Shown one piece after another: positions 1 through 61,243 of a stretch of DNA of 64,000 nucleotides; the stretch's first letter is position 1, and every line of letters begins with the position of its first letter. Origin of the DNA: Proteromonas lacertae (Eukaryota); NCBI GenBank assembly GCA_002245135.1, contig NGBS01000607.1, forward strand, positions 1-64,000, given 5' to 3'. A model generated the notes under the pieces. It saw nothing but the letters and a program-made list of their open reading frames with translations. It was not told where the DNA came from and made no database searches. The translations under genes and the position numbers were made by a program.

Positions 1-2474
1 TATTGGAATTGTTATAATTGGATTAGATCTGGATTTGACTAATGGAGGTAATTCAATTAATCATCTTCAGGAAGAATAAATTCATGATCTTTGATATTCG
101 TAATAAAAATTACATTTGCTAAATTCATTTTATCTTTTTTGACTTTGAATTATCTCTTTTATATACATATCCTTCTGGAATAAACACTTTTGATTGTATT
201 GGTTTTGGTTTTATAATTCTCTGTTTTTCTTTCTTAGTATTTTCTAATTCTTGAAGCTTTATTGAATATATTCTTTCAATTTCATTAATCTCCTTTTGAC
301 AATTATTAATATCATCTATTATGCCTCCAAAATCATTTCTTATTCCTTTTTGATATTTTTGGAATATGAAATATATGAATAATAATCATTTACAGAAGCA
401 AATAATTTTTTCATAAATATTTTATATATATCTTCTGTTAATCTACTCATTTCAACTTCATTTGCTTTTGTGCATTTCTTGGTATTGAAATACTTTGAAA
501 TTTTTAAGTAAGTGAACATTTTGATTAATAGGAAATATGTTTATATCTGAATCAAAATATGAATTATGTAGATTAATTCCATTATATCCATAATTATTAT
601 CAAATAAATATAATCTATAATCTTTATTTGAACTTCCAGATTTATTTCCACCTTTAAGTAAGAATGAATATTCATTAAACAATTCTTTATTAAAATCAGT
701 TGCAATCTAATCTCATTTTCTTTACAGAATTTTATCATATTTAACATCAAAGAACGAGAAAAAATAATCATTTTATTATCTGAATTAAATGGATGATATT
801 TATATTCAATTTCCACAGCACCATATTTCTTTGTTATTTCAACATTCACATCATAAGTTGATAATGGCAAAACAACATATAATTCTTTTCTTTCATTACT
901 TAAACCAAATTCATTCCTTATCCAATCTCCCCATCCTTCTTTAGAAGAAATATTATTTCATGATTTGTAAATCCCAATATAGAATCATCACCACAATGAA
1001 GTTTAAATTTGAAACTAGAATTCTTATTATATCTGAAAATAACAACTTTGAAATAAATAGAATCTGGTTCTATATTGTTTAATTTTGACTTGATAAAATC
1101 TGCTAAATTTGATTCATATGAATTAGTCTTTTCAATCATATGATTTATTGATTCATGATAATATAATGTCAAAATATAATTCTTAGCTTCTCTATTGATT
1201 CTATTGATCCATATTTCTTTTCAAATTCTTTATTATCTCTTTCAACAGCTTTTTTAGCATCTCTTTTTAATTTATCTTCCATTTGTTTATAATTATTTTC
1301 TAATTTGTTTTTATTATTCTTCAATTCATTATACTCTTTTTCTAATCTCTTTATCTTCTGATCTATTCCTTCTATTCCATTTTTATATTCATTTTGAAGA
1401 TATTCATCTGTTTTGGAATTATATCATCTATTGATTTTAGAATAGGATTTGTTTTAAAGAAATCTTTCAATGATATTTCACTCAATATTTCTAACACAAT
1501 ATCTGATAATTCATTGTGTAATAATGGACATATTAAAACTAATTTATCATGAAATGGCAGTGAAGAATTATATATTCCTTCATAGATATAAAACAAAGGT
1601 TCACTTTTCATATTATAATTTCTAATTTGATATTCATACTTTAAATCAGATGATGATACTATTGTTCCTGGTTCACATTTACTTGTGTAATTGTATGGTT
1701 CTAATGATAATATCTTATGTAAATCCAATTCTCTTTCATTTTCTTCTTCTACATATCTAATGATTCTCAATGCTTGTAATTCTAATTTATCTTCATAATA
1801 ATCTGTATTACATTTATCAATTATATGTGATAAATCATAATCAACTCTCCCATTGATAAATCTTTGTTTCGATTTAATCCATTCATTTCTAATAAAGTAT
1901 TTATGCACTATCTAATTGTTCTTGAGTTATTTTTCATGAATATAAAATGGAGCTTCTTTAATTATGGAATAATAATGATTCAAATCTACAGTTTTAGCAT
2001 AATAATTGATTCTAGCTGTCACATATATTTCTAAAGATTTTTTCATTACTTCAAAATTCTCAAAATCATGAATTAACTTATCTTTTGATATTTCTAATTC
2101 TCTCAATAATTCATAATATTGAACTATTGCTGATGCTGTATTTGACACTTCTAAAGCATATAAGAAATGACTACATTCTAAATATAATCTTGCATTATTA
2201 TCTTGAATTGATATAATCAATTATTGTATCTTTTATTTGTTTTATATCTTTAATAAATCATAAGCATCATCATCTATTCCTTCTATATTATTCTCTTCTT
2301 CAAAATCATTAACAAATTCACTCTTTATATTTGCTAATTCTCTTTTGATTTTGTTATAATTCCATTTGTCTTTGTCTTTTTCTTTTCATCTCTTATCATT
2401 GATATGCTTTTAAATCTTTCATTTCAGTATAAAATGATGAATATTCTTCAAAATATTTATCCATTCCATAGAAT
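1..2474 (-). CDS. Frameshifted C-terminal continuation of the giant pseudokinase-AAA gene (runs off the window); indel-broken by assembly error or decay
   Basis: About 1970-2495 aligns to the open copy at about 11525-12015 but carries several 1-nt indels (e.g. agtttttaaa vs agttttaaa). Consecutive same-strand ORF fragments at 1927-2220, 1372-1908, 918-1172, 541-870 and 458-682. Confidence 0.55.
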
Positions 2475-5400
2475 CTATTCAGTTTTTAAAGTTGTATCTT
2501 TCATTGTTTCATTAAATTCATCATATATTCTTTCAATATCATTAAATAATAAATCAGTCATTCCTGTGTTTTCTTTTGGTCTTCTTGATATATTTGATGA
2601 ATAACTTTTCAATAATCGAAGTGTTTTGTTTATTATATTCTCTATTACTTCTATTGGACCTAATTCATCTATCTTTTCAATTATATCACTAAACACATTT
2701 TGATATTTATTCCATTGAGAATCTTTATTATTCAATAATACTTTATCTTTACCTATTATATAACATAACAACAATTCATCTGAATCTTTTTTCAATTCAT
2801 AATATTCTTTTAATTTACATATTTCATTATCTTTGATATTAATCAAAGGGCATTTGTGCATTGACTTTAACTTTTCTGATGAAGATAGTTTGAAATATTT
2901 GAATAAAATCCATCTTTGAAGATTTGGATTACATTCAATTATTGTAGTATTTTTACCAAAATTCTTATTCACTGTTGAATATATCTGATAAAGTGGATAA
3001 TATAATAATGATGATGTGTAGTTAGAATTGATTATTTGGTATATTTGGGAATGTTCACTATTACTTCCTTTCCTGTTAAACATCAATATACTATCATTCA
3101 TTACTTGTTCTATCAAATCTTCAATTTTATCAACATTCTTATCTTTCAATCTTTTGATTAATATACTTATATTTGATGTATTAATTTCTGGAGGTTTTAC
3201 TAATATTGGGTATTTTGATTCTCTTCTCATATGAAATTCAAATTCATAACTTTCATCATTTGGATTATTCAAATATCTCAGTATATTTCTGAAATTGATT
3301 GGAATTTCTTTTCCAAAACATTTCACTTCATTTTCTCTCTCTTTTATATAACACAATTCTTGAGCAGATTCTATTGTGTTTAATGGATTAGCATATATCT
3401 CTATACAACGACTTAACAATGGAGCTGGAATTGTTGCTAGATTGGTTGTTGAAAAAGAGAAATAAATTCGGAAATTATCATGAATTCTATATTCAGCTTT
3501 GGGATTATCTCTTGTATATCTTATTTCTTCATCTCCATTTTCACCATTATATTCAGTTATTTTCAATTCTGGATTTTCTTCACATAATGAGTTTAATCTT
3601 TCCAAAATATCACCACTTGCTAGATTTATATCTTCTATTACTATCCAACATCCTTTTTCTATAGCTGTTAATAATGGACCTTTCTTAAATTCAAATGAAG
3701 TTTTCTTTTCTTCTCCACATGAAACTAATTCCATTCTACCTATTAATAAAGAACTTGTACTTTCACTATTCAATGGAACAACTATCAATGTCTGATTATA
3801 TAATTGTGCTAATCTTCTTAATACATAACTTTTGCCAGATGGAGATGGACCATATAATATCACTGCTCTTTTGGATATATATGATAAAGCTATTTTATAA
3901 GCTAAGGATTTTTCTGAGGTTGTAAATTGATTAAAATCAAATCCACAAGATTCTTTTGAGAATGGAATTGACCAAGGACCTGTTAATAATGTATTTTCTT
4001 CTTTACCTATCAGTTTTATATCCATCTTATTATTGATTGATAAAACTTTCTCAATTTCTTGAATATCATACTGATTGTATTTACATCCAAATGTCAACCA
4101 TAAAGCTGCTTTTATATCAGCTTTTATATTAAAACTTCTCCACACTTCTATTGCTTTGATTGGTTCTCTCAATGTAAATCCAATACCTATTTGTTTCCCG
4201 AGTCTTAAGGATTGTTCAAATAATTGATTGATTATTTGATTGAACTTTTCTATATCTTCAGCTCCATCTTCTGGATTTTCACTTTGCTTTAATATTTGTT
4301 TGCCTATTGTCAATAATTCAGATAATTGATATGATATATCATTATGGTATAAACTAATTGTTAATAAATTACTTGATAAAGAAGATCTGTTACTTGTCAT
4401 TGAAGCAGGATTTAAAGTACAAATTATATGAACTTTCTTTGGCAATTCTATTGTTCCATAACCATGAGCATCAAATGTTGTTTTATTCTTATCAGTACAA
4501 CATTTTATAAATGTGTAAAACTCATCCAAGACATCAGATGGAGCTAAATTCAATTCATCAAATAGAAATCCTATTTCTTCATCATCTTTATGATTTTCTA
4601 ATTCTGTTGTTATTATACCTGGTTTTCTTTCTTGATTTTGATCAGATCCAATTGTTAAACTACCAAATAATTCTTGAATTGTTATATTTGGTGATAAATT
4701 AAATCTGAATATTGGAATATCCAAAGCATTATAAACATGTTGAGCTGTTACTGATTTACCAACACCTGGATCACCTTCTAATATCACTGGTAAATTCGAT
4801 TGTATTCCCAATAATAATGTCAATATCATATGAACTGTGGTTGGAACTATATAAAATGATTCTTGAATATTCTTATTCAAATAATCTTGAATCTTATCAT
4901 ACACATCCATAAAATTAACACTAAATATTTCTTTCAATAATCCATCAACATCCAAATTCGCTGATACTTCTTCAGAATTCTTATTATCTAATTTGAATAG
5001 TCTTTGTAATGGTTGAGAAACAGATTTGGCTTTCTTAGATCTTAGTAATTCATATCTTGATTGATGATTTCTTGATATATAATCTAAATAAAACATTGAA
5101 TCAATTGGATTTCTAAAATACTTCTGTATTCTATTCTCTAATGTGTAAAAGTGTAATGAATATCTAATTATATCTTTACATAATGGAAATCTTCTGATTA
5201 ATTCTGTTTCTGTTGGATTTGGACAATAGATTGGCAAGAATAAAGATTTATCATTAATTCTATTAAAATCACTATCACTTATTACTCCTATCATCTTGGG
5301 TGGAACATAACTTCTTATATTCTTTATTTGATTCATTATATCTTCATAAACTGAATAAACATATTGATTGTCAATATTCTCCTGATATTTCATTGAACCT

Positions 5401-8400
5401 TTATATAATTCCAATAATCCTGTTATTCTGGGTAAAACAGATTCACTTATAAGATCAAAATGATTTAATATCAATGTTTCATCAGTTATAAAACTTGTCA
5501 TTATCAAACCAGGTTTGAAGAATAAACAAGATTCTTCATTATATTTCATTATTTCCTCCATATTATTCTTCCATTTAACAAATGAATTACTTGGATTTCC
5601 TTTATTGTAATTGTTATATGATGTTGCTATTTGATTCATTGTTGTTAATAACTCAGATGGACTGGAAATTAAAGTACTTCCTATCAAATAAGAAGAATCA
5701 TAAGATCTTGATAATTCGATAAATCTTCCATTATCTTCATATAAATCATTCATTAAAGACATTTGGAATGATTCACATGTGATATATAAAACTGGTGCTT
5801 GAAAATCACTTGATGATAATAACGATAATCGAAATAGACTTTCCAAATACCAATTATCTTGATTGTTAAACAATTCTTTTAATTCACATGTTGTTGATAT
5901 GTTATACTTTGATAGAGTATAATGATTCTTTTCTTTTGTGATTTGAATTTTACTTTTCAAAAATGTTTCTATTGTTACTTTTTTGATTATATCTTTGAAT
6001 ATTTCATCTAATAATGATATTTTACTTTCATCACAAAATAAACCAAGCAAATAAGGGAACTTATCTTTATATATTGATTTTAATGGAATTAAATAATGAA
6101 GTTGAGTCATTGAGAATAAATCATTTTCAAATATTTCTTTTGGTAAGTCAAATATCTTACTCTTTTCTTCATTAGTATATTCTTTTATTTCAAAACTTGG
6201 ACAATAACAAGGTATTGATTGAGTTGGTTTTTTATCACCAGATGTTGTGAAATTGAATATCACTCTGAAGGATGGATGTATTTTGAAGGTTTTATTCATA
6301 TATTCAAATTCATTAGTGGTTGGATCAATAAATGTTTCAAACAATTGTAATATATCACTTGATAATAAATGAGAATGTTCAATCACCAATACTACACCTT
6401 CTTCCATTGCAGATATAACTACACCTCGATGAAATTCTCTATCATCTGTGAAAAATCCTAACAATTGATCAATTTCAGTTTCTGGAGAGATATATAATGC
6501 TAGAGATTTTATTGGATTATAACTTCCATTCAATAGTTGTTCTATTAAATAACTTTTACCACTTTCTTTATGTCCAAATAAAGCTATTGATCTGTGTGTG
6601 ATTAATGATATTAATATTTCACTTAATAACTCTCTTCTTTCTTCAACTCCTTCAAATAATCCTTCATAACATTCTAAATATCTTGAGGGTTCTTCATAAT
6701 ATTTTGTTAATTCATTTATATGTTTCTTTGTTTCTTCTTTGAAGAATGATTCACAGAAAGTTTTTATCATCTCTTTTTTATTTTCATCACTTTCTTCAAA
6801 TGCATTTTCTATTTTTTCATCTGGTAAAGTAACTAATATAAATCTATTAATCAAAGCAGGAGAGAATTTCATTAAACCATTTTTTGAAACACTTGCAATT
6901 ATTCTGAAATTTGGATGAATATCAATTTCTGGTTCTTCAATTCTTTCATCAAATCTCACTTTCTGTTTACATCCATCATTTGGTATTATTTCTAACAAAG
7001 AATTCAATCTTTCGATTGAATTAGATTTCATATTATCTAATGATTGAAGAAAACAAGTTTCTCCATTGATTATACTTTTTACTAAAGGAGAATCATGCCA
7101 TTTTGGGGCTATTTTAATATCATTTCCACTTTCTTCATTATTATTATTTCCTTCTAATTGAAACATTCCAACCAAATTCTCAGTTGTTGTTCCACTTGTA
7201 CATCTTATAATATTGAGTTTTTCATTATCATGAATAGATTGGAGATATGATAATACATACTTTCTAGCTGTAAATTCATTCTCACTACATAATAAAATAT
7301 GACAACCTGATTTAAATATTGCTTTTATGTATTGACAAAGATTATTCCAAATAGTTTCATTCAATGGAAATAAAGTAGATTTACTAATTTCAAATGGTTT
7401 AGATAAATTCAGTTTATTTGTTGGTAATATATCGCCATAAACAATCTCTGTAGCTATTTTTGAAGAACATTTAGCTGATGTTATTAGAGTATTTGCTCTA
7501 ATACAATCTCTCAATGTATAAACTCTATCTGGATGATTGGCTAATGCATTTTGATGAGAATTTAAAATATCATTCACATTACTTTTTGAGATTTTTCCAA
7601 TTGATTCTAATATCTTGTTTAATTCTTCTCTTGTTATTTCTGGGAAGAATCTTGAATCAATATATCTGAATCTAGACATCATTGTTTCATCAATTTTGGT
7701 TCTTTTGTATATTGAAGCAGCTTGATTTTGAGTTGCTATTATTCTGAAACTTGGATTCATATCATATTTTGTATAACCACTTCCTATTGAATCAACATAT
7801 AATTCATGAGAATCTAAAACATTCATTATTGCTTGAACTACTTCAGCATTTGTTAATGACAATTCATCCAATAATATCACTTTTCCTTCAATAAAAGCTT
7901 CAGAAAATGGACCTAATTGGAATATTGGAGTTGATTTACCATCTATTGTTTTTATTATCACATTTCCTATCAATTCATCAATTATTGATGATGGACTGAA
8001 ATTATATCGAATTAACGGAATTTGACCATTCATACACACTTGCTCAACAGTGAATGTTTTGGCACTTGAAGTTTTACCTTCAACTAATAATGGAGTATTC
8101 TTTTCTATTCCATCTTCTATGATTTTCATTCTTTTTAATGCATTTTCAGTTAATACAGCTTGAGATCTTTTATTTATAGCTGTTACATCTCTATATGGTT
8201 CACAGATTATTTTCTTTCCTGTATCTTCATCAATTACTTCCAATGATTCATCTGGAGAATGAATAATCATTATATCAGTATGACAAGTAACAGATTTATT
8301 TCTTAATAATGGAAAACGATAGGATTTTTCTTTACATTCACATATTTGATAGAAATATATCTTTTCAGGAATAATGTTATTATCACTTCTTGTTTCTAAT

Positions 8401-10821
8401 AACGGTAATGTGAAATTGTTTCTTTTATTTTCTTGTCTATATTGAAAACCAATCTTAGAATCTTTTACTACATAATCTAATCCACAAATTAATGTTGATG
8501 GTAAAGATGAATATACTTTTCCTTCATTATTCTTAATGTATAAATTATCCAATAAAATACAATCAATTTCTTTAGTATCATTATATTGAATCAAAATAGA
8601 ACGCTTCACAAATGGATGATAATGAATTACATCTTCAATGGTAAAACCTGTTTTTATATTTAGTATCTTGTCAAATTTATATTCTATTTCAAGTTTTTCT
8701 TCATTATCAGAATCTGAGCAATATGAACTATCAGAATCTGAATCAGGATTCATAGCTCTTCTTCTTCTCATTCCTTTCTTGTGTTTATTTTCAGTTGGTA
8801 TATTACCATTATTATCTTCAGGTTTATTATCAACTATATGCTGTTGTTCTTCACTTATCGAAGATGGAAGGGGAGGATTTGAATTATCAAATGTTGGAGG
8901 AGGTGGTGGTAGTGGATTTACACCAAATGCTGGAGGAAATTGTTGAGGATTTACATCATATGGTGGTGGAGGTGGAAAAGGTTGATTAACACCAACATTA
9001 GGTGGTATAGTAGGATGAGGTTGTTGTGAATTTGTAGGAACAGGGGGAGGTGGATTTGGATATTGATAATTTGATTGAGGAGGTATAACATTTGAAGGAT
9101 TTTGATAAGCTGTTACAGGTTGTTGGTTATTGATATAAGGATACTGGTTTGTATAATTAGTTTCTCCATTATATTGATGAGATGTATTATTCGAATAATT
9201 ATAATTGTTATTACAGGAATGAAGTGGAGAGAAATTCTTCGAATTATTATAAAAGGATAAAAATTCTTCGAATATTTTTCTCATTCCTTTAAATCTATTC
9301 AGTTTGTATATTGGATCTTTCATTGTTTCATTAAATTCATCATATATTCTTTCAATATCATTAAATAATAAATCAGTCATTCCTGTGTTTTCTTTTGGTC
9401 TTCTTGATATATTTGATGAATAACTTTTCAATAATCGAAGTGTTTTGTTTATTATATTCTCTATTACTTCTATTGGACCTAATTCATCTATCTTTTCAAT
9501 TATATCACTAAACACATTTTGATATTTATTCCATTGAGAATCTTTATTATTCAATAATACTTTATCTTTACCTATTATATAACATAACAACAATTCATCT
9601 GAATCTTTTTTCAATTCATAATATTCTTTTAATTTACATATTTCATTATCTTTGATATTAATCAAAGGGCATTTGTGCATTGACTTTAACTTTTCTGATG
9701 AAGATAGTTTGAAATATTTGAATAAAATCCATCTTTGAAGATTTGGATTACATTCAATTATTGTAGTATTTTTACCAAAATTTTTATTCACTGTTGAATA
9801 TATCTGATATAGAGGATAATACAATAATGATGATGTGTAGTTGAAATTGATTGTCTGAAGTAATAATTCCATTTCATCTTTATTATACTGTGAAATATTT
9901 TCATGTACTATTTCTACTATTAAGTTTTCTATTTTCCCTTCATCTGATTTTAGTTTTTCAATCAATTCATATAAACAATTATTTATTAGAAACAACGGAT
10001 GAGTTTCTTGCACCAAAAGATGAGGAGTTGTAGTAATCTCTTTCAATATTTCTATAGCATCTATAATATCAATTCTATTTTCTCTTTCTTTTATTAGAAT
10101 TCTATTTATCAAGTTATTTATTTCTTTACTGAAATCTCCTCCAAATTTTTTATATTTACACTTCATAATGTTATTCATTGTTTCAAAAACATTATTACCT
10201 TCAAATGCATTAGTTTTACTTATTATATAATAACTAATACAACCAATTGACCAAATATCACTTTCTTTACTTATCTCTTTGTTTTCTAATACTTCAGGTG
10301 ATACATAAAATACATCATCATTATTATTTGCAACTACTCTCTTAAATAACTCAAGCTTACAATAATCACTCAAATAATAATGACTACCTTTGTCTATAAG
10401 GATATTGGAGGGTTTAATATTACCATGAATAATATCATTGGAATGTAAAATACTTAAACCAGTGTATATGCCTTTTAATACATCAAATACATTAACATCT
10501 TCAAAAAATGTCACAATATTGACTTTATCTAATGATAATTCGTATTTCTTCATAGCGAATAACAAATATTCTGAATCATTTTTTATATAATCATATTTAA
10601 CTATATTTGTAGAGTATAGTTCATTAATTATCTCAAGCTTTGATTTATATTGATTTATACACTCTTGTTGTATTTCTTGAATATTATATACTTTTAACAT
10701 TTTTTTTGAATGATTCTGAACATTATCAACAATATACGTATTTGAATATCTTGAACTGGGTATTTCTTTCAAAATCTATAGAGATTTATTATTGAAGGAA
10801 TACTTTATAATAATATTGCAT
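2475..10821 (-). CDS. Giant protein: N-terminal protein kinase-like domain (probable pseudokinase), helical module, Pro-rich linker, six tandem midasin/dynein-related AAA+ modules, second copy of the helical module
   Basis: Kinase motifs IIHGNIKPSNIL, YVSPE, SDIWSIG. Walker A-like GKTSSAKT, GHKESGKS, GDPGVGKS, GPSPSGKS; Walker B ILLDE, FLFDE, IVIED; midasin-type ERLNSLLE/ERLNSLCE and FRIIATQN. Likely 28-nt intron at 10776-10803 gives the start MQYYYKILKEI; further upstream exons are possible. Confidence 0.8.
2496..3033. repeat. Direct repeat copy A (about 540 bp, near-identical to copy B)
   Basis: Matches 9315-9852 with only a handful of substitutions near one end; offset 6819 bp. Confidence 0.95.
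9315..9852. repeat. Direct repeat copy B
   Basis: Encodes the same NYTSSLLYYPLYQ...FNETMKD peptide as 2496-3033. Confidence 0.95.
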
Positions 10822-11379
10822 TAATGAGATAAACCTATAATTATTTGATGGATCATTAACCTTTAATTGTAGATTAGAAGCTGTTTTTATGAATTTGTTT
10901 TCTTTTGGTGCTAATAAAGCATTTGGATGTATTACATTTTCTCCCATGTTTTGTTTGATATGATGCATTTCAGTGGAAATCTTTTCAACGAGTATTTGAC
11001 AATTTGGTACTAAATAGCTGCTGATTGGGTATTCGCATTGTAAAATTGATATTCCTCTTATATCATAGATTTTAAGTAAATTTTTATTCTCTTTTATAAA
11101 GTTCTAAGAAATAGTTCATAAAACAATACAGCCACCTCTTCATACAACACATTACAGTTATCATAAGAATTCAAGTTTATACTACCTATTAAATATCCAT
11201 TATATATCAAATTCACACTAAAACTCATTCAATTTAAATCTATTTTGAAAGATTACTTTTCATTTTAAATTTCATTTTTTGTGATATTAAAAAATAACTA
11301 ATAAGGAGTTATTATGATATTAAATGTAAGTCATTCGATATATTAGATTATAATTTATGTTAAAAATCCAATACGAAGT

Positions 11380-12478
11380 TAATTACTCTTCATCTTCTTC
11401 ATAATCTACACAACACTTATCAGTTACATGAGATACATCACAAATCATGTTGCCATTATCATTTTTTATCTTCTTGAGTAATGTTTCTACAAATACCAAA
11501 TAATCCTCTTCTTATTTTTATATAATAATGATTGAAACTACCATTCTTTGCATAATAATTGATTCTAGCTGTCACATATATTTCTAAAGATTCTTTCATT
11601 ACTTCAAAATTCTGAAAATCATTAATTAACCTATCTTTTGATATTTCTAATGCTGTATTTGATACTCCTTATGCATATAAGAAATGACTACATTCTAAAT
11701 ACAATCTTGCTTCTTTATCTTGAATTTGATGATAATCGATTATTGTGTCTTTTATTTGTTTTATATCTTTTAATAAATCATAAGCATCATCATCTATTCC
11801 TTCTATATTGTTTTCTTCTTCAAAATCCATTTCAAATCCACTCTTTATTTTTGCTAATTCTCTTTTGATTTTGTTATAATTCATTTGTCTTTGTCTTTTC
11901 TTTTCATCTCTTATCATTGATAATGCTTTTAAATCTTTCATTTCAGTATAAAATGATGAATATTCTTCAAAATATTTATCCATTCCATAGAATCTATTCA
12001 GTTTTAAAGTTGTATCTTTCATTGTTTCATTAAATTCATCATATATTCTTTCAATATCATTAAATAATAAATCAGTCATTCCTGTGTTTTCTTTTGGTCT
12101 TCTTGATATATTTGATGAATAACTTTTCAATAATCGAAGTGTTTTGTTTATTATATTCTCTATTACTTCTATTGGACCTAATTCATCTATCTTTTCAATT
12201 ATATCACTAAACACATTTTGATATTTATTCCATTGAGAATCTTTATTATTCAATAATACTTTATCTTTACCTATTATATAACATAACAACAATTCATCTG
12301 AAGGCTTATTACATTCATAATATTCTTTTAATCTACATATTTCATTGTTTTTTATATCAGTCAAAGGATGGTTGCTGAGTAATCTCAGTTGATCAGCACT
12401 GAAAGATTTAAACAAATAAGATATTATCGAAAATATTTTTTCTTTTGGTTCTGATGTATAATTATCACTTAAACTCAT
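11380..12478 (-). pseudogene. Truncated or decayed third copy of the helical module of the giant AAA gene
   Basis: About 11525-12301 is highly similar to about 1970-2783. Premature TAA at 11669 where the other copy has TTA (Leu), a 36-nt in-frame deletion (SAIVQYYELLRE), and in-frame homology continuing past the stop. Confidence 0.7.
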
Positions 12479-12754
12479 CGTTGTGTAGAAATTGCAGTAT
12501 TTACATACACTTTTACTTACTCTTTTTACATAAAAAAGAATAATGAAAATTAAGCATACATTTCATTCGATAATTCATTAATTTGATAAATTCATATTCA
12601 TTTTCATTCATTTTTTTATAATGAAAATTATATTCGTTACTACATATCAAATCATTTTTTCTATTCAAACCAAAGATTATAATGAAATAATATATATATA
12701 TATAATATAGATTATAAAATCAAATAAGTAATATTAGATTAGATTTTAATTATC

Positions 12755-59615: not shown

Positions 59616-61243
59616 ATGGTAGTTCCATACAAAAAATCAGAAAAAACACAAGCTGTACTTGACAAACTTCGTGGAGGTTTAATTGTCTCATGTCAAGCTC
59701 ATGAACCTGATGGTTGTTATGGTGTTGATGTAATGACAAGAATGGCTGTTGCTGCTGAAATGGGAGGAGCTTCAGGTATTAGAGCTGATGATCCTGATCA
59801 TGTTGCATCCATTCGTAAAGCTGTGAAATTACCAATCATTGGTATATACAAACAAGATATCGAAGGTTATGCAACAAGAATCACATTGAATATGGACAGA
59901 GTAGCAGATATTGTCAATGCTGGAGCTGATATTATTGCTATTGAAGCAACAGACCGTCCACATCCATTCAACACAACTGGATTTGAACTTATCACGCAAA
60001 CAAAAGCTAAATATGATGTAGTTGTAATGGCTGATTGTTCAACAATTCATGAAGCTGAATTAGCTTACAAAGCTGGAGCTGATATCTTATCATCAACAAT
60101 GAGTGGATATACACCTTATTCATTGACACGTTCCAACACCAGATTATGAAATGGTTGCTGAAATGAAGAAGAGATTCCCTGATAGATTCATCATCTGTGA
60201 AGGTAGAGTAAATTCCCCTGAACAAGCTGGTAGATTAATCAGACACGGTGCTGATGCAGTATGTTGTGGTTCAAACATTACTCGTCCAATCTACGTCACT
60301 CAACATTATGTTGCTAAAATGAAACCATATCCATCAGGTTCTCCAATTTTAGCTGTTGATATTGGTGGTACAAAGATTGCCTGTGGTGTTGTATTACCTG
60401 ATGGAACAGTCTCTGGTGTAGAGAAAGTACCAACTCCAAGTGATACAGCTGAACATATTTATGAATCATTAATTGGAGTAGCAAAGAAGGTATTTAGTAT
60501 GTGGAAAGGTGATAAGATTGAGAAATGTGGTATTAGTACAGGTGGAACTATTAATTATAAAGGTGATATTATCTATGCAACTGATACATTAACAGGATGG
60601 AAAGGATTCCCATTAAAAGAAAGAGTTGCTGAAGCTTTGAATTTAACTGTGACTGTAGTTAATGATGGTAATGCTGCTGCTTTAGGTGAAGCTACTTATG
60701 GTATTGCCAAGAACTGTCATTCAGTATTAGGTATTACTGTTGGTACTGGATTTGGTGCTGGTGTTGTTATTGATGGTGAAATATACAGTGGAACTTTAGA
60801 TAATGCAATTAATATGGGAGCTATTATAGCACAAGTTGGAGGTAAGAAATCAGATAAAGTTGTTGGTGCTTTAGAAGCTTATGTTAGTGGCAGAGCTGTA
60901 TATAATGAGTATGTTGATAGAACAGGAGATGCTAATAAATATACAGATGGTAAAGCTGTAGGTGATGCTGCTTTAGCTGGTGATTTTGATGCTAAAAAAG
61001 CTGTTGAGAAAGTATGTGAATGGTTAGGTATTGGTATTGCCACTATTGTTGCTTGTCATAATCCAGAGATGGTTGTTATTGGTGGAAGTGTTGCTGATCT
61101 AGGTGATATGTTTATTGAGAATGTAAGAAGAGAATTTAAATCTCATGCTTTCCCTGCATTGAAAGAGACTCCAATTAACTTGGCTGAATATAAATCAAAT
61201 GCTAATCTTGCCTGGAGCTGCTGTTTATGCTTGGACACATTAG
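59616..61243 (+). CDS. nanEK: Fused N-acetylmannosamine-6-phosphate 2-epimerase (NanE) + ROK-family sugar kinase (NanK-like); intronless; two apparent 1-nt insertions
   Basis: GGLIVSCQA, GGASGIRA, LPIIGIYK, MADCST, STMSGYT, EGRVNSP, GSNITRP, then LAVDIGGTKI, NDGNAAALGE, TVGTGFGAG, NPEMVVIGGSV. Removing 1 nt near 60131 gives RPTPDYEMV; removing 1 nt near 61212 gives NLAGAAVYAWTH*. Confidence 0.9.

Follow-up and report, generated by a model that had tools for sequence, protein, structure and literature searches.

The question raised by this locus is what kind of protein results when a kinase and a ring of AAA+ ATPase modules are encoded in a single gene. The gene lies on the minus strand near the beginning of the window, by which we mean the whole stretch of 64,000 nucleotides analysed (Proteromonas lacertae, contig NGBS01000607.1, positions 1 to 64,000). 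The original prediction had described a giant pseudokinase fused to a single-chain six-module ring, a lineage-specific, domain-shuffled signalling or defence ATPase with an RNF213-like logic and not the midasin of ribosome biogenesis. Architecture, family placement, motif pattern and recurrence of the fusion are observed features of this gene and its relatives. Judging from sequence, we consider it probable that the product is an ATP-driven protein remodeller of a second, non-ribosomal midasin-like family, in which the kinase would act as a non-catalytic adaptor or bait.

Kinase and ring stand in one open frame (10700..2475, minus strand) of 2741 amino acids, in which Pfam finds Pkinase at aa 3-214 (E 6e-26) and AAA_5 (E 2e-56), and in which a profile made from the protein's own modules finds six modules at aa 849-2493; in the assembled sequence the kinase and the six AAA modules belong to one chain, as had been proposed. 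The 8.3 kb are free of stops at about 26% GC. The stretch covering aa 215-850 (636 codons) is open, the longest frame in 2000 shuffles being 117 codons, and the other two frames across it hold 58 and 96 stops. The proposed lack of introns over 8.3 kb holds from 10775 down; above this point a 28-nt GT-AG intron is predicted at 10803-10776. Once it is removed the N-lobe of the kinase regains its first strands, and a codon model changes frame on either side of it, at 10805 and 10773. A start at 10821 needs this intron and coding runs on below 2475, so that 2475..10821 does not describe the gene from end to end. Further in-frame ATG codons lie upstream of 10821, at 10947 and 10968, and the frame is open to about 11100. 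The approximately 100 open codons at window:10790-11100 (minus strand) are in frame with the predicted first kinase exon and may lengthen the protein; they gave no family match with the ring-family profile. The parts of the gene and its surroundings, all on the minus strand, are:

10804..10821, minus: predicted first kinase exon, minimum extent, a prediction from sequence
10776..10803, minus: predicted GT-AG intron of 28 nt, restoring the kinase N-lobe strands
10026..10775, minus: degenerate Ser/Thr-type kinase, by Pfam and motif alignment
9231..10019, minus: stalk copy A (aa 228-490), its core equal to copy B over 468 bp, its flanks diverged and homologous
8691..9218, minus: low-complexity linker, Asn/Gln/Pro-rich, then basic and acidic
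8166..8663, minus: family-specific N-domain before the ring, about 30% identical to Blastocystis orthologues, with 0 Pfam matches
7470..8156, minus: AAA1, with a variant Walker A (AKT), Walker B DE, sensor 1 and a conserved TLRD motif; predicted active
6666..7361, minus: AAA2, Walker A and B gone, arginine finger NRF kept, no Mdn1-type helix-2 insert
5859..6650, minus: AAA3, Walker A present and Walker B gone; predicted to bind nucleotide without hydrolysis
5109..5849, minus: AAA4, every catalytic motif gone
4125..4853, minus: AAA5, with canonical Walker A, Walker B DE and sensor 1; predicted active
3222..3929, minus: AAA6, Walker A kept, ED instead of DE, arginine finger SRC kept
1..3221, minus: stalk and tail, with about 16 small indels from about 2487 down, leaving the window at its start; copy B of the stalk segment at about 2428-3230
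11462..12562, minus: stalk copy C, a free-standing fragment with a 269-aa open reading frame, ended by a nonsense codon, and a 36-nt deletion; likely a relic or truncated gene

At the lower end, positions 2784-2330 compared with the upstream copy show 0 substitutions and 4 one-base indels, all in homopolymer runs and the first at about 2487; the stop at 2475 appears because a one-base insertion in an A-run shifts the frame. Short frames at 2220-128 match the family tail, in order (best E 1e-12), and the codon model continues to base 1 over 2.7 kb with about 16 frame changes and 0 forced stops, scoring 171 versus -247 to -293 in three shuffles. We infer that the homopolymer indel pattern is long-read sequencing error. 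About 1600 positions of the family profile would fall beyond base 1, vWA domains among them, and the C-terminus is off the window. A false fusion through stop codons made by polyadenylation was considered and rejected: TGTTTGTT occurs four times in the window and not once inside the gene.

The ring was said to have lost Walker A in modules 2 and 4 and to keep GK(S/T)-like loops in the other four; the losses are present as claimed, and the loop of AAA1 ends in AKT and not GKT. Beyond Walker A, AAA3 is without Walker B and AAA6 has ED for DE. This pattern of dead and live modules is equal in 7/7 aligned sequences and in both paralogues of Blastocystis sp. Blastoise: in all seven, Walker A is gone from AAA2 and AAA4, DE is missing at Walker B of AAA3, and both DE and sensor 1 are intact in AAA1 and AAA5. 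Despite its lost Walker A, AAA2 retains the arginine finger in all seven; AAA6 does so in six (P0006 is short and misaligned there), and the two Blastoise paralogues have both fingers. According to PMC6286127, the arginine finger of each site in Mdn1/Rea1 is supplied by the module that follows, function lies in AAA2-5, AAA1 and AAA6 are without Walker B, and a helix-2 insert of AAA2 plugs the pore. With a finger supplied by the next module and their own motifs kept, AAA1 and AAA5 are the predicted hydrolytic sites here, unlike those of Rea1. The pore-plug insert is absent, the span from Walker A to Walker B in AAA2 being 83 residues versus 164-190 in 5/5 canonical midasins. Moreover, the lid domains PF17865 and PF17867, both carried by the canonical midasin P0011, are absent from the window protein at E up to 0.1.

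The closest relatives of the ring that carry a name are Blastocystis proteins. The ring (aa 840-2460) is collinear with 6 of 25 matches, all of Blastocystis type (30-33% identity, 98-100% coverage), Blastocystis hominis XP_012896857.1 being one of them. Trees were made by FastTree from 163 six-module proteins (178 examined) and by IQ-TREE from 22 of those; they are unrooted, have long branches and do not include RNF213, VWA8 or dynein. In both trees the ring groups with Blastocystis (ultrafast bootstrap, UFBoot, 100 by IQ-TREE), apart from canonical MDN1 (UFBoot 100), and Tritrichomonas, Kipferlia and other relatives form neighbouring non-canonical groups, with UFBoot 73 at the joining node. 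With its separate clade, its missing lids and AAA2 insert and its different active sites, the protein is not the midasin of ribosome biogenesis, in agreement with the original prediction. The family nevertheless resembles Midasin/Mdn1/Rea1: a single chain holds six AAA modules of the MoxR clade in tandem, followed by a long stalk and, as seen in the orthologues, by vWA/MIDAS-like domains. It differs, besides the features already given, in its variable N-terminus and in the tail, which has three vWA-like domains and a GATase-like domain in the orthologues versus a single C-terminal MIDAS and a D/E-rich region in midasin.

The RNF213-like logic found no support in the sequence. A family-profile search of PDB gave midasin first (E 1e-121), then the bacterial MoxR proteins CbbQ/NorQ/CobS/RavA, with dynein at E of at least 0.004; RNF213 was absent among the 35 family-profile matches and the 16 single-sequence matches. 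RNF213/mysterin is a giant single-chain hexa-AAA protein with several dead modules, and to this extent the two are alike by analogy only; no RING or E3 family was found by Pfam in 6 orthologues.

Supplemental Table S5 of PMC12129017 lists a lid-5-bearing midasin for P. lacertae and for 5/8 Blastocystis strains, beside further AAA_5 proteins, and gives 11-17 AAA_5 proteins in three tortoise Blastocystis strains versus 1-3 in human strains; these counts may include fragments and other AAA_5 proteins, and two Blastoise paralogues were retrieved here. The table agrees with MDN1 being a gene of its own and with an expansion of the second family. Of the 1264 matches to a query with Theileria midasin, the best 120 included none named as Blastocystis, and none of ten canonical-looking midasin representatives is from Blastocystis; both results are uninformative. 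In the accessible literature, which left subscription papers (the Proteromonas genome paper included) and most supplements outside its scope, we found no description of a second midasin-like family or of a kinase-ring fusion; PMC9896827 does no more than name a "Midasin-like protein" in a single-nucleotide polymorphism table.

Two further sets of non-canonical proteins were observed. A third group comprises bdelloid rotifers, Hondaea and others of up to 7954 aa, in which AAA4 is split and dead (P0007-P0010, P0146, P0151, P0153, P0157, P0160); several of these are labelled Midasin in the databases and yet fall outside the MDN1 clade. Intronless non-canonical hexa-AAA genes also lie on AT-rich contigs at L015:135-16121, L016:56-16042 and L017:9896-18580, with sizes of more than 5300 and 2890 codons, and L015 and L017 group with Tritrichomonas proteins.

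The kinase has HGN in place of HRD, DYC in place of DFG and a Pro-rich linker after it, all as claimed. The Gly-rich loop, said to be missing, is present as a segment (PSSRYS) that has lost all three glycines (0/3 of GxGxxG), a reading that depends on the predicted 28-nt intron. The catalytic Asp of HRD is replaced by Asn and the helix-C Glu column holds Lys, with another Glu two residues further on; the beta3 Lys, the catalytic-loop Asn and the Asp of the DFG position are kept. The kinase is likely dead and non-catalytic by these motifs, and, with the beta3 Lys still there along with the Asn and Asp that bind metal, it may bind ATP and partners without phosphotransfer. It is a member of a group of HGN/xDY kinases that occur with leucine-rich repeats, Pro-rich or other tails, and clusters with seven relatives (mostly HGN and xDY) and two MAPK-labelled sequences (UFBoot 94). 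For kinase-domain proteins in general, Supplemental Table S5 of PMC12129017 gives 1100 in P. lacertae versus 130-330 in Blastocystis.

A kinase before such a ring is not confined to this gene. A HMMER search covered 1.84 billion representatives, of which the best 150 matches were examined; the kinase scan, made in chunks and so covering proteins of more than 6000 aa, took in 314 proteins of at least 1000 aa. A kinase precedes the ring in 6 of the 314, namely the window protein and five records of three Tritrichomonas-type genes, and in no canonical midasin. The Tritrichomonas-type fusions among the best 150 matches are KAK8886803.1, KAK8892654.1 and P0270, and such a fusion stands in two independent sources, ENA and NCBI, as a protein of 6157 aa in both. 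The kinases of the three genes are all degenerate, two of the three without the catalytic Asp and the third without DFG, and they group with a plant receptor-like kinase (UFBoot 98), apart from the group of the window kinase. The separate clades of the two kinase types indicate at least two independent origins of the kinase-ring fusion. The Tritrichomonas musculus proteins KAK8886803.1 and KAK8892654.1 share with the window protein a degenerate kinase before a non-canonical hexa-AAA ring, and have the vWA and GATase-like tail of the Blastocystis orthologues. They differ in that their kinase is TKL-type, of separate origin and followed by helical repeats that by eye look Sel1-type, in that the duplicated stalk segment is not seen, and in the pattern of dead modules.

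The N-terminus is different again in Blastocystis. XP_012896857.1 and the Blastoise paralogues KAK8809840.1 and KAK8807361.1 share the ring, N-domain, stalk and motif pattern and have no kinase, the two paralogues carrying other long N-terminal extensions. A kinase about 4.5 kb upstream of Blastocystis ring genes was considered and set aside, being a separate gene on the opposite strand. At the orthologue locus L001 the ring can be linked to five or more ubiquitin-like repeats, and to one more domain, by a model that has 12 introns (30-31 nt each) and is free of stops; it reaches about 3.1 kb, and none of 60 shuffles exceeded 351 bp. Similar exons exist at L002 and L006; under the intron rule applied, their spliced models end at about 8470-8500 and are joined over the last six introns only, which leaves the ubiquitin-like exons of these two without a formal link to the ring. 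The predicted ubiquitin-like repeat arrays lie in intron-rich 5' exons at L001:6639-9749 (plus strand), L002:6566-9749 and L006:6599-9776. Ring and tail of L002 form one frame of 4485 codons, so the intronless core is a family trait; L001 and L002 also have gene neighbours in common. The sequence comparisons support the kinase as a shuffled, lineage-specific addition. For the machine as a whole lineage-specificity finds no support, since the ring with dead AAA2 and AAA4 is conserved in Blastocystis, relatives exist in metamonads and the fusion recurs in Tritrichomonas.

The tail was studied in the orthologues, by modelling the 1186 C-terminal residues of L002 from 6 sequences (mean predicted local distance difference test 55, domains about 70). 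Residues 46-265 are predicted to take a vWA fold like the human MDN1 MIDAS (Z 16.6, root-mean-square deviation 3.3, 211 aligned) and residues 965-1178 one like integrin-type I domains (Z 16.9, deviation 3.4, 192 aligned). A middle vWA-like domain is seen by motif, the acidic residues of the MIDAS positions are largely kept, and the order is vWA-vWA-GATase-like-vWA. The GATase-like label is a weak lead, from Atlas feature matches of 0.92-0.94 of which some are to clusters of IFT52_GIFT (21-26% of members), DUF4960 and DUF4092; this domain, between the middle and last vWA, occurs in 28 of the 314 proteins scanned, of Blastocystis and metamonad type only. The tail had no match in PDB by phmmer. 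Mdn1 uses its MIDAS to pull ubiquitin-like domains, as stated in PMC8837202; with ubiquitin-like and MIDAS-like domains in one chain, an orthologue could bind itself.

A possible mechanism can be drawn from these parts. The six modules would close into a ring hydrolysing ATP mainly at AAA1 and AAA5, to which AAA2 and AAA6 would supply their conserved arginine fingers in trans. This ring would move the long helical stalk, and the vWA (MIDAS-like) domains at its end, seen only in orthologues, may grip and pull the substrate, by analogy with Mdn1 and with the MoxR-vWA pairs treated in PMC3495828. The N-terminal position would be an exchangeable targeting module, filled by a pseudokinase here and in Tritrichomonas and by the predicted ubiquitin-like repeats in Blastocystis. 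The kinase probably came from the host's own expanded kinase group, by a recombination that also duplicated part of the stalk.

Whether this remodeller serves in defence is more doubtful. Prokaryotic MoxR-vWA ternary conflict systems, as described in PMC7159879, have variable attached domains that are often inactive enzymes, disrupted Ser/Thr/Tyr kinases included. They are like the window gene in coupling a MoxR-clade ATPase to vWA and in their inactive kinases as variable domains; they differ in that several genes of an operon encode them, a third component included, and in that the vWA protein carries the variable domain, whereas the window gene is one eukaryotic chain with the variable domain before the ring. 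The likeness is one of design, not shown descent, and is a closer analogy than RNF213. By this analogy it is conceivable, and we suggest it tentatively, that the N-terminus captures dead host signalling modules as decoys and that binding of an invader protein triggers ATP-driven extraction by the vWA arm. The family would then be a eukaryotic single-chain counterpart of these systems in anaerobic gut protists, with pseudokinases captured twice and ubiquitin-like repeats too. The variable dead N-terminal modules, the apparent expansion and the unstable locus would speak for such a role; the 1-3 AAA_5 proteins of human Blastocystis and the shared neighbours of L001 and L002 look like housekeeping.

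Several points weigh against the remodeller reading. The long branches mean that the non-canonical grouping may partly be long-branch attraction, the node of Blastocystis and metamonads being that with UFBoot 73. The vWA part lies off the window, so the gene may be truncated, and its visible tail is frameshifted. The orthologue tail model is of low confidence overall (predicted template modelling score 0.33, 6 sequences), and no kinase was found in any Blastocystis orthologue (Pfam scan of 6 and later scans). The junction of kinase and ring is that of the assembled sequence, three near-identical blocks mark an unstable locus, and this triplicated stalk is the weakest point of the fusion in the P. 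lacertae genome.

The triplication concerns the stalk segment of 265 residues; a block of about 600 bp lies in three copies within 10.5 kb: after AAA6, which is the native site, between kinase and ring, and in the upstream fragment. Copies A, B and C share identical tracts of 468, 301 and 289 bp, with flanks diverged but homologous. Between copies A and B the 5' edge shows 4 synonymous codon differences and 1 replacement, between copies A and C the 3' flank shows 4 and 12, and the similarity score of the upstream flank of copy A alone was reached by 6 of 2000 shuffles. We read the copies as an older duplication with recent gene conversion; their identity may also come from homogenisation during assembly. 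Such patchwork identity, the nonsense codon and deletion of copy C, and a stalk copy directly after the kinase that has no counterpart in orthologues would suit a recent non-adaptive rearrangement, in which a decaying paralogue amid stalk fragments recombined with the gene of a pseudokinase and the indels of the tail are in part genuine lesions. This is unlikely, as 8.3 kb are stop-free with the catalytic motifs kept as in orthologues, the tail indels come in homopolymer runs without substitutions or forced stops, an apparent single-base break in the NanE gene of the same window, unrelated to the ring, points to assembly error, and copy A has old flanks that remain in frame.

An assembly chimera, in which a kinase gene and a ring gene were misjoined through the identical 468-bp block, would explain why that block sits exactly between kinase and ring in an assembly with uncorrected errors. 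Nevertheless, copy A is homologous to the stalk, though less similar to it, also on either side of the identical core, and even after a misjoin at that place a stalk copy would stand before a ring. Long reads usually span 0.5 kb, the error pattern suggests such reads, and the same kind of fusion is present in the two Tritrichomonas sources. We hold the chimera to be quite improbable.

JAK JH2 is an example of the HGN-type pseudokinases that bind ATP and have a regulatory role in cis, and the kept Lys, Asn and Asp make Mg-ATP binding possible, so the kinase could be weakly active or an ATP-sensing allosteric switch of the ring and not a bait. This is very unlikely, given the loss of the Gly loop and apparently of the helix-C Glu, the approximately 450 residues (175 of low complexity) between kinase and ring, and orthologues that work without a kinase. 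That the protein is a fast-evolving true MDN1 in 60S ribosome maturation, its kinase incidental, is scarcely credible: no solved structure is closer than midasin, the orthologue's first vWA is MIDAS-like and the best 120 matches of the Theileria query held no canonical Blastocystis MDN1, but the lids, AAA2 insert, active sites and clade all disagree and a lid-5-bearing midasin is listed for P. lacertae in Supplemental Table S5 of PMC12129017.

For the remodeller family that we favour, the implications reach beyond this gene. Few machines of the single-chain hexa-AAA kind exist, and midasin counts as a single gene of ribosome assembly; the locus exposes a second midasin-like family that lacks the pore plug, carries several vWA domains, has an exchangeable N-terminus and is predicted to fire at AAA1 and AAA5. 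This family would show how an Mdn1-type ring gets retargeted. The joining of a degenerate kinase to the ring in two unrelated lineages suggests selection for the pairing, and the family can be tested, since a member exists in Blastocystis, a common cultivable gut eukaryote. Some of the 11-17 AAA_5 proteins filed under "Dynein" for tortoise Blastocystis in PMC12129017 may belong to it.

The window is AT-rich (GC 0.23-0.32), its introns are short and AT-rich, for example 32 nt at 13561-13530, and the gene neighbours are ordinary host genes. An intronless IFT70/TTC30 flagellar gene lies at window:46664-48688 (plus strand), with E 1e-239 to solved IFT70; in Supplemental Table S5 of PMC12129017, IFT70 is listed for Proteromonas lacertae and for 0/8 Blastocystis strains, in keeping with a flagellated relative of Blastocystis as the likely source of the window. 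A NanE epimerase followed by a ROK kinase (window:59565-61269, plus strand) is likely a single fused bacteria-like sialic-acid gene; the break in NanE lies near 60127-60149, where an intron signal is absent. Four tandem paralogues with 69-81% DNA identity occupy window:50400-55070 (plus strand) and look like ZIP metal transporters by motif. Finally, a coding region with internal repeats at window:28773-30648 (plus strand) is ankyrin-like by eye.

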